Shown here: positions 6,604-64,000 of the stretch, piece by piece
Position numbering within the stretch: position 1 is the stretch's first letter
Layout of the letters: every line of letters starts with the position of its first letter
Source: Escherichia phage Murica
Reading direction: 5' to 3' (one strand)
Sequence record: NC_041871.1
Length of the DNA stretch: 64,000 nt
Notes under the pieces: generated by a model
Told to the model about the DNA's origin: nothing
Database searches by the model: none
Seen by the model: only the letters and a program-made list of their open reading frames with translations
Made by a program: the position numbers and the translations under genes

Positions 6604-6643
6604 AAGTAAGTGCTCCTATGTTAGTTTTCTTTCGAATGGGTGC

Positions 6644-6672
6644 ACTATATTGTGGAGTTAGAGTAAAGTCAA
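6644..6672 (-). promoter_or_regulatory. sigma70-like promoter, TTGACT-N17-TATAGT, minus strand
   Basis: -35 is reverse complement of 6667-6672, -10 is reverse complement of 6644-6649, 17-nt spacer; about 40 nt upstream of the 6603 start. Confidence 0.55.
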
Positions 6673-7756: not shown

Positions 7757-9217
7757 ATGGATAGCAGAAGTTCAGAAATCATTGCCTCTCAGAAAGATGA
7801 TGCCCTGAGAATGTTGCAGGCTGCACGTATGTATCTCCTTGAAAAGCTGCCGTTTTATGGCACACTACTGTCAGGGTTGCAGTTCGTAGAAAACCACACA
7901 TGGTGCTCCACCATGGCAACCGACCATAAACGCATCTATTACAGTCCTGAGTTCATTATGGGATTGGCTGATGAACGCAAGGCTATTCTTAAGGCTTCTC
8001 TAACTGACGAGCAGTTTGAGATGGCTGAAGTTTTCTATTCCCCAAAATCTGTGAAAGAGGTGGCCTTCCTTCTGTCACATGAGGTGGGGCATATTATCTG
8101 TGATCACCTAGTCCGTGGTAAAAGCTTTGAGCCGGAACTGTTCAATATTGCTTGTGATCACGTTATCAACACAGGCCTTGTGGTTGACTTTAGCAAACCT
8201 CCTTGTGTTTTCTTCCCGAAGGGGAAAAGCACTACGTTCATGAAAGGTAAGCCTTTTGGCTTCTTAGCCAGCTGCTACTGCGACATGAAGTTTCATGGAT
8301 GGATTGCTGAGAACGTTTATGCAGTTCTTGATAAGCAAAGAGATCAGAATAACGGTAAAAGTAAGAACGGTAAAGGTGAGAACTCTCAAAGCGATAAGCG
8401 ACAAACCGATGATCACATGAGTGGGAACGGTGGCACCAGTGATAATCTTGGAAAGGCTATGGGGTATGATCAGCCACAACCTGTAATCAGCCAATCTGAT
8501 AAAGATCAGGCCATGCAGGACTCTGGTGATATGCTGGAGGCAGCAATGCAAGCGTCCGGAGGCCGTTGCCCTGAGGCGGTGCGTGAGTTTGTCAAGAACA
8601 GAGGTAAGCCTGTAATCAACTATATAGACATCATTAAGCAACGTATGTTGTCTAAAAGAAAGGCCGAACTGACCTACAGAAAACCTGGTCGCCGATCTGG
8701 GTCTTTGACCAGCACAATGCGAAAAGTTGGGGCTATAAACAAGAACCAGCACGTTATTGTTCCTGGTCGTAATCCGGAAAACACTATAGATATTGTGGTG
8801 GCTTTAGACGTTTCTGGCTCGATCTCTCAAAGAACTTTAAAGAAAATGTTCAATGAAATCACCGGATTGTGCAATCTGTATAAAGAGTTTAAGGTTACAA
8901 TGTTCTGTTGGTCAACTGAGGTTGGAGAGGTTAAAGTATACACTCGCGGCAACATAGACGAGATGGTCAACTATGAGGTCCACTCAACATGGGGCACAAC
9001 AGCTGCTTGCGTGTTCGAGTATCTGGATGCCAACATACCTAATGCAAAAGATGTCATCGTCCTGACCGACCTATACTTTGAGCATAACTTTGAACAAAAG
9101 GTTGTTGACAACAAGTGGAAAAAGTACGATACTCTATGGGTCCTCACTAAGGGGTATAATAAAAATTATATCCCGAGCTTTGGGAAAACTGTGGAATTAA
9201 TCGAGTACGCTAAGTAA
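7757..9217 (+). CDS. vWA-domain protein with N-terminal HExxH metallopeptidase-like domain (DUF2201-like, usual partner of MoxR ATPases)
   Basis: HExxH in LLSHEVGHIICDHL; MIDAS-like DxSxS in VALDVSGSIS. Start re-called from 7736 (inside the hairpin) to ATG 7757. Confidence 0.6.
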   Translation: MDSRSSEIIASQKDDALRMLQAARMYLLEKLPFYGTLLSGLQFVENHTWCSTMATDHKRIYYSPEFIMGLADERKAILKASLTDEQFEMAEVFYSPKSVKEVAFLLSHEVGHIICDHLVRGKSFEPELFNIACDHVINTGLVVDFSKPPCVFFPKGKSTTFMKGKPFGFLASCYCDMKFHGWIAENVYAVLDKQRDQNNGKSKNGKGENSQSDKRQTDDHMSGNGGTSDNLGKAMGYDQPQPVISQSDKDQAMQDSGDMLEAAMQASGGRCPEAVREFVKNRGKPVINYIDIIKQRMLSKRKAELTYRKPGRRSGSLTSTMRKVGAINKNQHVIVPGRNPENTIDIVVALDVSGSISQRTLKKMFNEITGLCNLYKEFKVTMFCWSTEVGEVKVYTRGNIDEMVNYEVHSTWGTTAACVFEYLDANIPNAKDVIVLTDLYFEHNFEQKVVDNKWKKYDTLWVLTKGYNKNYIPSFGKTVELIEYAK

Positions 9218-60958: not shown

Positions 60959-61057
60959 GGTGCTAGGTGATGGAATCGAACCACCTATGTATTCAACGAC
61001 TACCTCGTCTATTTTCAGGATTAAAAATCCTCGCCCTTGCCAAAGGGCTTACCTAGC
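60959..61057 (-). tRNA. atypical tRNA-like element (99 nt): tRNA acceptor, D and T arms, but no canonical anticodon arm
   Basis: Perfect 7-bp acceptor GCTAGGT/ACCTAGC, D arm GCCC/GGGC, T arm GGTGG-TTCGATT-CCATC. The intervening 47 nt form two small hairpins (AGGAT-TTTTT-ATCCT and ACGA-GGTAG-TCGT). A Lys (UUU) reading needs a mismatched stem and a 29-nt variable region. Confidence 0.4.
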
Positions 61058-61360: not shown

Positions 61361-61447
61361 TGGTGGGGAGTGGTGGAGTCGAACCACCCGAGTCGCAATG
61401 ACAATAGATTTACAGTCTACACCGCTACCTCTACGGGATAACTCCCC
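61361..61447 (-). tRNA. tRNA-Tyr (anticodon GUA), type II
   Basis: 87 nt, acceptor GGGGAGT/ACTCCCC, anticodon loop CTGTAAA, T arm GGTGG-TTCGACT-CCACC, encoded CCA. Confidence 0.65.
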
Positions 61448-61451
61448 AATT

Positions 61452-61526
61452 TGGCACCCCGTACTGGACTCGAACCAGTGTCAACGGCTTAGAAGGCCGC
61501 TGCTTTATCCACTAAGCTAACAGGGC
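61452..61526 (-). tRNA. tRNA-Arg (anticodon UCU)
   Basis: Acceptor with two G-U pairs, D arm GCTT/AAGC, anticodon stem GCGGC/GCCGT with loop CTTCTAA, T arm ACTGG-TTCGAGT-CCAGT, encoded CCA. Confidence 0.6.
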
Positions 61527-61622
61527 ACTGGGTGGCTTTCTTTTACACCTTAGCCGCCAGAAAAGGTGGGAGACCATGTTTACAATATTACACTGTTAAG
61601 CAAAGTTTGTCAAGAAAATATT

Positions 61623-61961
61623 TTAGCTATTGCTAACAGGCTGTATTTCTGTAGTAAATGGCATAAAAGGTGCTGGTTTTTCAGCCTCTTCCACTACCAC
61701 CTCTTCCTCTTCACCAAACATCTCATCATATTCTTCCTGCATTCGGTCTGCCTTATCAAGAACATACTCTGCAATGCTTTGACGAATATTTTGTTTGGTT
61801 TTCGGGTCCAACATCAGCTCTCTTAAAACTTTGTGAGCTTCTGGAACCATCGCTATAAAAGATTCCTTCATATCAAGGATGTTCTTCTCTAGCTGAATGG
61901 CGTTGGACTCCTCTTTCAGAGGTCTGCCTCTACGGCGACGCTTTTTAGTTGTATCCGCCAT
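61623..61961 (-). CDS. small protein with basic N-terminus (KKRRRRGRP) and acidic C-terminal region (start trimmed to MADTTKK)
   Basis: ATG 61959-61961 with GGAGG RBS; the track extension upstream runs into a GC-rich noncoding island. Confidence 0.45.
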   Translation of the reverse strand: MADTTKKRRRRGRPLKEESNAIQLEKNILDMKESFIAMVPEAHKVLRELMLDPKTKQNIRQSIAEYVLDKADRMQEEYDEMFGEEEEVVVEEAEKPAPFMPFTTEIQPVSNS

Positions 61962-61989
61962 GTTTCCTCCATTATCACGTGATAGGTGG

Positions 61990-62230
61990 ATTTTATCATA
62001 GCAAATACTGATTGTCAAGTTCGCCGCAGGGTGGTATTCCCTGCGACTTGTCCAGCGTCCTGGACCAGCAAGACCCAACAAGTGGGTTACCAGAGCCCAT
62101 TACCGCACTTTGGCTCGACCTTATTACAGGTTGGCCGGGGTCACATCGTCATGTGCTGGCTGCCCCTACCATTTTAAGTGTGGTGCACTATCAAGCCCTC
62201 TAAGGGGAACTCAGCCTTCTCCGAACCCTG
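61990..62230 (-). other. GC-rich hairpin-dense noncoding island (candidate structured RNA or 5' leader)
   Basis: Perfect hairpins at 62026-62044 (GCAGGG/CCCTGC), 62050-62065 (GTCCAG-CGTC-CTGGAC), 62073-62087 (ACCCA/TGGGT), 62142-62155 (CACAT-CGTC-ATGTG); only short overlapping ORFs in all frames. Confidence 0.35.
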
Positions 62231-62305
62231 TTTCAAAGCATCCGGAGATAAAGCCATCAAATTCATCTTTAAATTGGATATTCATCATGATACACGAAAA
62301 CAACC

Positions 62306-62548
62306 TCATTGTAAAGCACAAATAAATAAAACATACTTAATTTGTTTGTTATCAGGCTCAGGGTAGAAGTAGAAGATCTTGCTATCACCGATCTGAACAC
62401 CACCATCCCAACAGCATAGCCCATAACCAGTATTCATACAAGCTAAGTCGTTGGCAAAATCTATTGCATCATCCAGTGCACGAAATTCACCTTCATCTTC
62501 TAAATAATCCTCATTCATGGAACGAAAAACGAGCTTAACCTTAAACAT
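62306..62548 (-). CDS. hypothetical protein, 80 aa
   Basis: ORF in track; weak RBS. Confidence 0.3.
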   Translation of the reverse strand: MFKVKLVFRSMNEDYLEDEGEFRALDDAIDFANDLACMNTGYGLCCWDGGVQIGDSKIFYFYPEPDNKQIKYVLFICALQ

Positions 62549-62624
62549 AGCATTACCTGTAGACCTCGTAAGTTAAAATTGCATCACATCATATTGCAGA
62601 TCTTATCAGGTAACACTATTTTTG

Positions 62625-62834
62625 TCAACAGATTCCGGCCTTATCCTTCCTGTCTGCGTATTCTTTAATCGCAACCTCATCTGCATTAGTGACCAGGTCT
62701 TCAAAGTAACTCTCAAGCTCCTCGTCAATGTCAGGAGACCAGCTCTTTTTCCTGTCAGTGTGAATTGCAGACTTGTTGAACTTATTACAGTTCTTTGCTA
62801 CCGGGTTGTTCATTAAGCGCTCCTCAGCGTTCAT
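62625..62834 (-). CDS. hypothetical protein, 69 aa
   Basis: ORF coupled to the upstream gene. Confidence 0.3.
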   Translation of the reverse strand: MNAEERLMNNPVAKNCNKFNKSAIHTDRKKSWSPDIDEELESYFEDLVTNADEVAIKEYADRKDKAGIC

Positions 62835-63402
62835 AGTAAATCTTATTTAACATTACCTCATCCTTTGCAGAAAGGATATCAAGATATGCATCACCAAATC
62901 TTCCTGCAACAACCTCTGCATGATACATCACTTCGTTAACATCGTCAAGAGTGATAACCGGATGACCATATCTTTCTGAATATTGTCTCAGGGTGCGATG
63001 TAACGAGTCGTCATCATATGCAGACTTTTTAATATCACAAACACGACGAATAGCCTTGATGTCGAAAAAACCTGTGCGATACCACCCAAGAAAAAGGTTT
63101 CGTGCAGTGTCAACATCTACATTGATACCATCAAGAACCTTATCTACAAGATAGCTGTCATCCTTTGGACCAGCGTCCTTAGTGCGAATGTAGTTGCCAT
63201 CTTTTCCAGGCGACATCTCCTTCTCATCCCCAACATGCATGCCATCATTTGGCGGTGTTAGCCACTTATCCGGATGCTTACGATCACGAGCGTTAGAATG
63301 ATTACGCTGGAAACCTGGCTTCCACTTGAAAGTTTTCTCCATCTGTTCTTCATTCTGATAACGTTTTGCAATCTTTTCACGGTCATCTTTGCGTGGACTC
63401 AT
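62824..63402 (-). CDS. hypothetical protein, 192 aa (first gene downstream of the regulatory region)
   Basis: ATG at 63400-63402 with GAGGAGG RBS; basic, Lys/Asp-rich. Confidence 0.45.
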   Translation of the reverse strand: MSPRKDDREKIAKRYQNEEQMEKTFKWKPGFQRNHSNARDRKHPDKWLTPPNDGMHVGDEKEMSPGKDGNYIRTKDAGPKDDSYLVDKVLDGINVDVDTARNLFLGWYRTGFFDIKAIRRVCDIKKSAYDDDSLHRTLRQYSERYGHPVITLDDVNEVMYHAEVVAGRFGDAYLDILSAKDEVMLNKIYYER

Positions 63403-63422
63403 AGCTGCCTCCTCTTCAAGTT

Positions 63423-63464
63423 ATAGAAAAACTCGCTGTATCGCTTTGTAACGAGCTTTTCTAT
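63423..63464 (-). promoter_or_regulatory. long hairpin in the 5' leader of the 62824-63402 gene
   Basis: ATAGAAAA-A-CTCG … CGAG-C-TTTTCTAT: 8-bp plus 4-bp stem around a 16-nt loop. Confidence 0.4.
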
Positions 63465-63509
63465 CAAACTGGTGCGATTGCCTTACTTGGTATAGTTTAT
63501 ATGGCTGTG

Positions 63510-63750
63510 GAGCGATTTAGGGGCCTCATTGTCCGTTTCCACACATAAACTTTATCCAAACTCGCGCGGGAGGCTCTCAACCGACTCCTTACGGCGCTGG
63601 CAAGCTTTCGTCGGTGGTCCACATTAGTGCTCGGCCTTTGGCCTGCGCCGCTTCGCTCCCACACATGTTAACAGACCTGCATGTGTGCACTATGGAGGCC
63701 CGGCATCTCGCCCCTCGTAGGCGAGTGCCAATGAAGGGCCGACACTACCT
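63510..63750 (-). other. second GC-rich hairpin-dense noncoding island (candidate structured RNA or regulatory region)
   Basis: No ORF of 60 aa or more; hairpins at 63643-63653 (GGCC-TTT-GGCC), 63660-63687 (CACACATG … CATGTGTG, 8 bp), 63707-63725 (CTCGCC-CCTCGTA-GGCGAG). Confidence 0.35.
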
Positions 63751-63772
63751 ATAGAAAGTAATAAATTTAAAA

Positions 63773-63842
63773 CATGGTACTTAGGATCTAGTATATTCTA
63801 CATAAGTTAAGTATATGTACTTAGTACCATAAGTACTAGATC
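63773..63842. repeat. AT-rich cluster of short inverted and direct repeats
   Basis: GATCTAGTA at 63785-63793 and its reverse complement TACTAGATC at 63834-63842; GGTAC/GTACC; TACTTAG twice. Confidence 0.6.
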
Positions 63843-63884
63843 TTTTATTTTTTATTATTTAGTTATTTTAGTTATATTCTTTAT
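63843..63884. repeat. AT-rich tract with short direct repeats (AGTTATTTT x2), candidate DNA-unwinding or UP-like element
   Basis: Near-pure A/T run TTTTATTTTTTATTATTTAGTTATTTTAGTTATATTCTTTAT immediately beside the palindrome array. Confidence 0.5.
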
Positions 63885-63967
63885 GTGTCCGTATCACGGA
63901 CAGTTAGTGTCCGTATTACGGGCAGATGTGTCCGCGTGACGGACAGTGGTGTCCGTATCACGGACAG
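63885..63967. repeat. array of four 19-bp palindromic repeats at 21-22 bp spacing (candidate operator or iteron array)
   Basis: 63885-63903 GTGTCCGTATCACGGACAG; 63907-63925 GTGTCCGTATTACGGGCAG; 63928-63946 GTGTCCGCGTGACGGACAG; 63949-63967 GTGTCCGTATCACGGACAG. Core GTCCGT-N3-ACGGAC is a perfect inverted repeat in copies 1 and 4. Confidence 0.85.
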
Positions 63968-64000
63968 TTAATAGTTTCTGTTCCATGGTGAACATAAAAC

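Follow-up and report, generated by a model that had tools for sequence, protein, structure and literature searches.

A phage-restricted family of structured RNAs with a conserved, predicted three-way junction, typically in the tRNA regions of virulent phages

Phage tRNA clusters are now viewed as counter-defence and takeover modules. The companion RNAs of the T4 cluster, rnaC and rnaD, are stable, non-essential and without an assigned function (PMC9697503), a situation which has lasted for fifty years. The present analysis concerns positions 61962-62305 of a window of 64,000 nucleotides (the whole stretch of DNA analysed) from Escherichia phage Murica (NC_041871.1). This segment contains island 1, a structured non-coding RNA element on the minus strand, at the heart of which lies a 46-nt core. 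Island 1 resembles rnaC and rnaD as a phage-encoded, structured, non-tRNA small RNA on the tRNA strand, in or beside the cluster, which would be released with the tRNAs. It differs in that T4 has a core copy of its own 6 kb away, in the denV-vs.8 spacer, and in that the present family spans several phage families. Homology to rnaC and rnaD was considered and rejected: R1, a covariance model built from the cores, matches the T4 locus (L063) only at 2357-2402, within the denV-vs.8 spacer, and not at 8409-8672, where rnaC and rnaD lie.

Other phage RNAs offer further points of comparison. In the lambda nut/N system the site is followed closely by the gene of its partner protein, which has an arginine-rich motif at its N-terminus. 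The pRNA of phi29 is a three-way-junction RNA of ~120-174 nt which works with a terminase-type ATPase, engages in intermolecular loop-loop pairing and occurs only in phi29-like phages. The put RNA of HK022 acts in cis, its adjacent stem-loops binding the beta' zinc-binding domain (PMC9378689). PhiTE, a virulent rV5-like phage, encodes pseudo-ToxI, a non-coding RNA which mimics a host RNA and neutralises a defence protein (PMC3475682). Pseudo-ToxI and the RNA anti-CRISPRs are repeats copied from host loci, whereas the core described here is single-copy and has no bacterial counterpart in the genomes searched.

The source of the window is an rV5-like Vequintavirus coliphage, the region being 97-98% identical to Escherichia phage rV5 and ~117 other Vequintavirus genomes. 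The conservation of island 1 extends much further. A distant BLAST search with the 344 nt matched 803 phage records; in 117 of these, the rV5-likes, the match was full length, while ~686 T4-like records share only 43 nt (window 62096-62138) at 90-97% identity. Further copies were found by exact-pattern scans of viral and metagenome collections and by more BLAST. The core is 90-100% identical across T4-like and other phage groups which have no other nucleotide similarity, and it occurs in at least five phage settings. T4-like phages carry it always 5' of vs.8, regardless of the upstream gene. The second setting comprises the rV5-likes and a more distant rV5 subgroup (L030, L034, L053, L074, L077 and L078). 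The third, between tRNA-Thr and tRNA-Gly, is found in the ~150-kb coliphages phiWec188 and L032 and in Pseudomonas phage PsgM04F. The core adjoins tRNAs in Klebsiella phage Pylas, which is N4-like, and in siphophage contigs of 46 kb; the single contigs L044, L054 and L061 make up the fifth setting. Conservation of the 46-nt junction, down to the nucleotide, extends over Straboviridae, Vequintavirinae and Schitoviridae as well as other virulent phages, among them T4, in which genetics is easy.

The core is restricted to phages. Exact 20-mers from it were absent from 185,579 bacterial and archaeal genomes, the E. coli genomes searched gave no match, and the 23 matches to a half-pattern in bacterial and archaeal genomes all score at most 22 bits, as against 60-70 bits for phage copies, and are ascribed to chance. 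A host-derived sequence or mimic was rejected on these grounds. Nor was a known RNA family recognised: Rfam 15 (4227 models) returned only 6 tRNAs for the whole window at gathering thresholds, and at E <= 10 over 61500-64000 the only overlap with the island was the snoRNA sR38 (12.8 bits, E = 8.6). For the T4-like and other copies, at E <= 1, there were only tRNAs, group I introns elsewhere and weak unrelated matches. The island is not itself a tRNA as judged by ARAGORN, which calls none in 61962-62305, or by the Rfam tRNA model, which finds none there at E <= 10. No description of the motif was found in the literature, though a 2023 catalogue of ~10,000 candidate viral structured RNAs might list it (PMC10690425). 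The existence of a new, uncatalogued, phage-restricted and horizontally spread RNA family defined by an invariant three-way junction is firmly supported, as is the placing of island 1 within it as a structured minus-strand non-coding RNA element of the rV5 type.

The 39 distinct cores align free of gaps, and their comparison supports a predicted fold in which a P1 hairpin is followed by a three-way junction of helices P2 (CCA/U(G)GG, with a bulged G), P3 (ACCU-GUAAUA-AGGU) and P4 (C(G)AGC-CAAAGU-GCGG) with the joiner UAA. P2 lay outside every search pattern and is hence free of ascertainment bias. Its pairs 6-39, 5-41 and 4-42 are formed in 38 of the 39 distinct sequences and show 13, 10 and 7 double changes, the respective pair types being AU/UA/UG/CG, CG/UA/GC/AU/GU and CG/GC. 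The P2 covariation score was reached by none of 500 shuffles; pairing stands at 89.9%, compared with 23-38% when the partner strand is slid, and the register without the bulge is clearly worse. Directly 5' of P2, all of the 56 distinct sequences carry a P1 hairpin domain, and 25 different stems serve to close it. The stems of P3 (ACCU-GUNNNA-AGGU) and P4 are almost invariant and their loops vary freely, with seven P3 loop variants and a P4 loop of the form CNNNGY. The P4 pair 25-32, as a rule C-G, is replaced by G-C in L073; the second tandem copy of L056 has U-A there, and G-C as its first P3 pair. Compensatory changes in these two helices were supplied by the diverged copies of L056 and L058, which R1 also recovers.

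These diverged tandem copies (L056 5093-5136 and L058 9136-9179; 35-43 bits) lie ~110 nt downstream of the first copy and upstream of vs.8. The U-G and G-U pairs found in P2 as well as in lineage-specific hairpins indicate the strand of the element: on the other strand they would be A-C mismatches, and they fit a minus-strand RNA only. Neighbouring genes and tRNAs share this strand with island 1.

The preliminary description, which was made from the sequence of the window, had noted a GC-rich island with four perfect hairpins, two of them sharing the loop CGTC, and had seen in the repeated loop a recognition element for an RNA- or DNA-binding factor. Composition and hairpins are borne out. GC content is 0.51-0.54 over 61900-62199 and ~0.38-0.44 in the flanks, and a scan of 61990-62230 for perfect stems of at least 5 bp yields exactly four (Table 1). 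In 2000 dinucleotide-preserving shuffles the average was 1.18 +/- 1.09 (P(>=4) = 0.036), and P = 0.0005 was obtained for two hairpins with a common 4-nt loop. The comparative evidence for island 1 is much stronger than such within-window statistics, since in relatives the stems covary and the loops are kept. The inner P1 hairpin reads CUACG-GACG-CGUAG in L030, L034 and L053, with four double changes around an intact loop. The stem of the 3' hairpin is GCUCAG/CUGAGC in L073 and GCUGG/CCAGC in the L034 group, where the loop is RGACGGA, and U-G wobble variants occur in L015 and L029. GACG (CGTC on the plus strand) is thus kept on three different stems of the 3' hairpin and on two of the inner P1 hairpin, a recurrence in relatives which means that the pattern is not a coincidence of one genome. 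The element is structured and its repeated loop does resemble a recognition feature, so that this part of the proposal stands; a loop conserved on varying arms is, however, the reverse of a protein-bound palindrome in double-stranded DNA, and that part does not.

Table 1. Features of island 1 and its surroundings (window coordinates).
Feature	Position	Strand	Remarks
Whole structured non-coding RNA element (island 1)	62019..62211	-	~193 nt; conserved block in rV5-like and more distant relatives
Invariant 46-nt core, predicted three-way junction	62092..62137	-	sole match of covariance model R1 in the window, 67.9 bits
P1 domain	62137..62166	-	closing stem GGGG/CCCC around inner hairpin CACAU-GACG-AUGUG (62142-62155)
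Hairpin 4 of scan (inner P1 hairpin)	62142-62155		plus-strand letters CACAT-CGTC-ATGTG
3' hairpin; hairpin 2 of scan	62050..62065	-	GUCCAG-GACG-CUGGAC, second GACG loop; perfect hairpin, stem covaries; plus-strand letters GTCCAG-CGTC-CTGGAC
Hairpin ACCCA-CUUGU-UGGGU; hairpin 3 of scan	62073..62087	-	lineage-specific, dispensable; plus-strand letters ACCCA-ACAAG-TGGGT
Terminal hairpin CGCAGGG-AAUACCA-CCCUGCG; hairpin 1 of scan	62025..62046	-	rV5 subgroup only; no U-run after it; 7 bp stem, plus-strand loop TGGTATT
5' conserved block of rV5 family	62169..62206	-	hairpin CCCU-UAG-AGGG, CUUGAUAGUGC, hairpin ACCA-(A-rich loop)-UGGU
Sigma-70 promoter P74	61990..62018	-	TTGACA-17-TAAAAT, 11/12 matches and extended TG; annotated in rV5; conserved in relatives
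Candidate sigma-70 promoter upstream of element	62287..62315	-	TTTACA-17-TATCAT, 10/12 matches
ORF74, outside the RNA	61623..61961	-	basic RRRRGRP arm, three helices, acidic tail ending in PFTTEI

Within the rV5 family the element begins right after the stop codon of a small ORF and ends a little short of the P74 -35 box. Close relatives differ in island length by 1, 3, 6 and 10 nt, which excludes a conserved ORF. A coding region was accordingly rejected; in T4-like phages other than T4, the T4 frame over the core is closed by stops. The hairpin at 62073-62087 is compensated to UCCCA-CUUGA-UGGGA in L073 and deleted in L040. The 5' block is almost unchanged in both rV5 subgroups, and the L034 group has a second, partial copy of it (CCC-AUAGA-GGG-CUUGAAAGUGC) 3' of the core. 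GGCUUG in the 5' block is complementary to the core segment CGAGCC, and the ACCCA of rV5 has two possible partners, the P2 3' strand or the downstream UGGGU, giving alternative structures. RNAalifold applied to the two rV5 subgroups recovered the local hairpins and no reliable long-range fold.

Positions 62211-62305 hold the end of ORF75 and the small conserved ORF, outside the structured RNA. This ORF (MMNIQFKDEFDGFISGCFETGFGEG; 62211-62288, minus strand) lies between ORF75 and the RNA, its stop abutting the first base of the element. In the L034 subgroup it has 8 codons (MKDEFDGF) and a strong Shine-Dalgarno sequence, and the two versions share the conserved KDEFDGF codons, with GAA/GAG as a synonymous change. 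Within the 5' end of the rV5 element, GAGUUCCCC gives a 9-nt match to the start of the E. coli type I-E CRISPR repeat. A CRISPR-repeat mimic was nevertheless rejected, as relatives have GCGUAUCCC or GCGUUCCCC in its place, the stem differs and E. coli genomes give no match. A CsrA sponge was likewise discarded, the five GGA motifs seen on inspection in ~300 nt being about what chance would provide.

The genes of the region all lie on the minus strand and are ordered in the direction of transcription as ORF77, ORF76 and ORF75 (62306-62548), island 1, ORF74, seven tRNAs (61526-60714 by ARAGORN), spanin-like ORFs and the large terminase. The rV5 annotation places the sigma-70 promoters P75 and P74 and a tRNA promoter here. 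Association with tRNAs is a property of the family. Outside the T4-likes the core is on the tRNA strand and within 750 nt of tRNA genes, the exception being L061, which has no tRNA in 3.3 kb, and a tRNA-region setting as the typical one for these RNAs is firmly supported. The element of L044 fills precisely the 111 nt that separate two tRNAs. Among the 46-kb contigs the core lies 200-360 nt upstream of tRNAs, and RNA and tRNAs together form a cassette, encoded on the opposite strand and flanked by the neck and major-tail genes, in the manner of an independent insert. In relatives the element also has gene-like boundaries. In the L034 group a strong promoter (TTGACA-16-TATACT, 11/12 with TG) ends ~7 nt short of the conserved 5' block, and another promoter is found past the element; in L054 a strong 11-bp intrinsic terminator begins 20 nt past the core. 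The -10 box of the candidate promoter upstream of the Murica element is TATGAT in L038.

A few observations accompany these loci. In Pylas, the 46-kb contigs and the 150-kb phages (L049, L051, L052, L057, L060 and L045) a stem GUUGUGA/UCACAAC encloses the core domain, and at these loci the domain is flanked by long hairpins that recur as modules, the bases ACAACAGGUAAGAGCA...UGCUCUUAUCGUUGU being conserved in them and the tips variable; core and modules together amount to a multi-domain non-coding RNA of several hundred nt beside the tRNAs. P4 of the core contains AGUGC, which turns up again in the modules flanking the core in other phages. Within the tRNA region of the window, 60959-61057 (minus strand) is called by ARAGORN as a 99-nt 'tRNA-???' with the 4-base anticodon atcc. 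It scores 35.5 bits with the Rfam tRNA model, is unannotated in rV5, and might be an insertion-bearing tRNA, a tRNA like a frameshift suppressor, or a pseudo-tRNA.

The preferred reading, held tentatively, is that the family represents a small stable RNA, made together with tRNAs, which presents its junction to one conserved partner. It is favoured because copies lie between tRNAs, because in relatives promoters and terminators bound the element, because some cassettes are moron-like, and because T4 rnaC and rnaD offer a precedent. Island 1 would be transcribed from the minus strand within a tRNA-region unit comprising the RNA, P74, ORF74, the tRNA promoter and 7 tRNAs, and would be made as, or processed into, a small stable RNA like rnaC and rnaD. 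In some phages the flanking tRNAs alone would suffice to excise it, and the inter-tRNA spacer of L044 lends indirect support to processing from a tRNA precursor. The degree of constraint on the core implies one specific conserved partner; we infer that the RNA accumulates as a discrete species and acts in trans, its invariant junction providing a high-affinity site (as a decoy, sponge or cofactor) for a single host factor common to Enterobacteriaceae and Pseudomonas. Unrelated virulent phages would have acquired the same module horizontally. It is attractive, albeit doubtful, to go further and consider the junction as the active centre of a new functional class of phage RNA, exchanged horizontally in the form of a self-contained module by virulent phages of enterobacteria and Pseudomonas, T4 included. 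Candidates for such a class are a decoy or protein aptamer directed at a conserved host machine or an anti-phage nuclease, for which a tRNA-targeting effector may serve as an example in view of the tRNA company of the core, an RNA-polymerase-modifying element and a new ribozyme.

Several observations weigh against a small stable RNA of this kind. The largest group, the T4-likes, carries the module away from tRNAs, in the 5' leader of vs.8 and 12-20 nt from the ribosome-binding site, a placement which looks more like that of a cis-regulatory leader, and some T4-likes have tandem copies. In rV5 no terminator follows the element and only a moderate candidate promoter precedes it; on the minus strand of the window no terminator-like site was found in 61400-64000. 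Phage WPEC4 lacks the core and yet keeps the remainder of the Thr-Gly spacer, which shows that at least one lineage can do without the module. Ascertainment accounts in part for the invariance of P3 and P4, the sequences having been collected with exact patterns within these helices, and only three variant copies supply their covariation. Folding gives modest z-scores which fail to single out a strand: they are -1.93 (minus) and -2.45 (plus) for 62019-62211, and -2.52 and -1.70 for the 344-nt stretch 61962-62305. Finally, the binding partner is entirely hypothetical.

The WPEC4 locus (L048 1503-1818) is a natural deletion variant in its own right: the 3' two-thirds of the spacer between tRNA-Thr and tRNA-Gly are kept at 85% identity and R1 finds no match there.

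The same evidence has to be set against other functions. A cis-acting co-transcriptional element, serving either antitermination through RNA polymerase and Nus factors or processing and stabilising punctuation between cistrons, is on balance unlikely. In its antitermination version it would keep Rho and intrinsic terminators from cutting short the transcription of downstream genes or of long, untranslated arrays of tRNAs. The orientation of the element is always that of the downstream genes and tRNAs; it lies upstream of tRNAs in rV5 and the 46-kb contigs, directly precedes an intrinsic terminator and a gene in L054, and occupies a leader between cistrons in T4-likes. RNA polymerase binding would account for invariance across host genera, and the abutting P3 and P4 recall the two stem-loops with which put RNA binds the conserved beta' zinc-binding domain (PMC9378689). 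Both put and nut place adjacent stem-loops near the start of long transcription units and act on a highly conserved host machine. ORF74 and its homologues have an arginine-rich N-terminus, as does lambda N. The likeness to put is limited to two adjacent hairpins (P3 and P4, of 14 and 15 nt), the sequences not having been compared. Put measures ~70 nt and has long irregular stems of variable sequence and no closing helix, while the stems here are invariant and of 4-5 bp. Inspection shows no boxA-like sequence and no boxB consensus, and the GACG tetraloop is not of the GNRA type. Moreover, the copies of Pylas and L054 lie downstream of tRNAs, ORF74 resembles a small terminase more than an N-type factor, and strong promoters (P74 and the tRNA promoter) follow the element in rV5 and the L034 group, so that downstream expression is independent of read-through. 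An element recognised by ORF74, whether an RNA operator bound by its arginine-rich arm through the two GACG loops or a DNA pac site for a small terminase, is improbable. All members of the rV5 family have GACG loops on covarying stems with ORF74 immediately downstream, the protein has an invariant K/R-rich RGRP arm, and its best matches are small terminases; the sites which terminases recognise are frequently found within the small terminase gene or next to it. The T4-like core, moreover, precedes vs.8, a terminase-ATPase homologue (bioRxiv 10.64898/2026.04.30.721860). The small-terminase match is nevertheless weak (E 0.3-1.7), homologues of ORF74 occur in GAP31-like phages without the element, many core-bearing phages have neither an ORF74 homologue nor a terminase gene nearby, and G-U covariation, with a loop conserved on variable arms, favours an RNA hairpin over a duplex DNA site.

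A compact, extremely conserved junction with covarying peripheral helices is also typical of small-molecule aptamers and self-cleaving ribozymes, and in the purine riboswitch a covarying helix closes two hairpins around a highly conserved junction sequence, much as here. The leader position in T4-likes, the tandem copies in L056 and L058 and the alternative pairing of ACCCA in rV5 would suit an element which controls or processes its transcript in this way. Such a function is nonetheless decidedly improbable. In the purine aptamer the pattern is the opposite of the freely varying loops and invariant stems seen here; no Rfam riboswitch or ribozyme model matches, and the associated genes share no metabolic theme. 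There is no consistent expression platform: in rV5 neither a terminator nor a helix sequestering the ribosome-binding site is present and a promoter follows. With regard to attenuation, the ORF74 ribosome-binding site lies beyond P74, and the terminator of L054 is not complementary to the core. Many copies, furthermore, lie between tRNA genes, where there is nothing for a riboswitch to regulate. That the island is a non-functional remnant, a decayed tRNA or intron or a chance group of GC-rich hairpins, is barely credible. It occupies a tRNA-cluster position, the tRNA regions of Vequintavirinae hold odd tRNA-like stretches, and on inspection parts of the core loosely resemble the anticodon arm and variable loop of tRNA. 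The tRNA covariance model and ARAGORN do not call it, however; the core keeps its 90-100% identity across families sharing no other nucleotide similarity, and compensatory changes preserve P1, P2 and the lineage-specific hairpins.

In T4 the core follows closely on the stop codon of denV and falls within vs.8 as annotated, at its 5' end. The frame from the start annotated for T4 vs.8 (219 aa; L063 2293-2413, corresponding to 64792-64912 of NC_000866) runs through the RNA core. In other T4-likes, with the frame closed over the core, the start of the conserved protein is MRTFLTGPYLSLMNAF, which lies 120 nt further downstream. It is probable that the T4 start has been mis-annotated and that the spacer is a structured leader; the first 40 codons of annotated T4 vs.8 cover the RNA. 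A possible upstream ORF of 16 codons (MDNSCATEWPKLIEKK) in the T4 leader ends in ATGA, overlapping the proposed vs.8 start. Annotation would need similar correction elsewhere, as hypothetical proteins are called over island 1 in many rV5-like records. In database searches vs.8 gives weak terminase matches. A T4 replication origin was considered for the leader and rejected, since oriC maps near rI.-1 and no common origin motif is known (PMC3016281). Just downstream of vs.8, in two T4-like contigs, there are weak matches to group II intron domain V/VI (L003 4879-4961, E = 0.97; L017 611-693, E = 0.12), which probably represent a conserved terminator-like hairpin.

The gene downstream of island 1, ORF74, belongs to PHROG 3330, and neither Pfam nor PHROGs assigns it a function. 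An alignment of the family shows an invariant basic arm (K/R-RRRG-K/R-GRPLKEESNAIQLEKN), an acidic linker and a conserved C-terminal PFTT(E/D)I. Its profile finds as best match in the PDB the NV1 small terminase 7joq_I, weakly (E = 0.33 over 48 residues). With an AF2 model of pLDDT 68, the top six Foldseek matches are all small terminases of the Pseudomonas phages NV1 and PaP3, again weak (E = 0.46-1.7, TM ~0.28). The chances that ORF74 is a small terminase subunit are put at even or slightly better, and it would then probably be the one missing from Vequintavirinae. The preliminary description had rightly recognised the AT-hook-like basic arm and acidic tail of this protein; a small terminase is the more probable identity than a dedicated regulator, and binding of the arm to the GACG hairpins is possible. 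The same description had placed the island directly upstream of the gene, as its 5' regulatory device. The near-consensus sigma-70 promoter at 62018-61990 intervenes, the gene occurs without the island and the core without the gene. In GAP31-like Vequintavirinae, ORF74 homologues of 50-62% identity are found inside tRNA clusters which have no core motif, with tRNA-Leu, tRNA-Arg and tRNA-Cys in the position which the island occupies upstream of the gene in rV5. Island 1 thus belongs to the tRNA region rather than to ORF74. In the GAP31-like loci L079-L083 (2501-2866) the homologue sits mid-cluster among 19-23 tRNA genes.

Two terminase-like neighbours, ORF74 in rV5 and vs.8 in T4-likes, are intriguing, although the other contexts differ. 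They recall phi29 pRNA, a resemblance which offers a lead only; no intermolecular loop-loop pairing and no homology to pRNA was seen, and most other core copies have no terminase neighbour. A general link of the core to terminase genes found no support: in the 46-kb contigs it is the genes for neck and major tail that flank the cassette.

Island 2 (~63480-63770, minus strand) is likewise GC-rich, structured and non-coding; the rV5 annotation has it as 'ORF 78', another call to be corrected. Indels of 18, 3 and 1 nt among close relatives interrupt this reading frame, that of 18 nt being a whole hairpin (GUGCAC...GUGCAU) which is missing in the present window and in rV5. Island 2 is restricted to rV5-likes and has no Rfam match. 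The suggestion that the two islands are a shared regulatory device did not hold up: a relationship between them was rejected, as they give no meaningful alignment, R1 does not match island 2 and their distributions differ. They do share the 9-mer AUAGUGCAC, of which there are 3 copies in the window where ~0.5 would be expected and which varies in island 2 of relatives. The exact 9-mer ATAGTGCAC, with ~0.5 copies expected, is present three times in the window, at 6640-6648, 62183-62191 and 63685-63693, all on the minus strand and two of the three inside the GC-rich islands. Just upstream of island 2, and near the gene for the GntR-like regulator ORF79 of rV5 (beyond the end of the window), 63883-63967 consists of four tandem 21-bp units with the consensus ATGTGTCCGTATCACGGACAG. 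Each contains the palindrome TGTCCGT-N3-ACGGACA, and together they look like an operator or iteron array.

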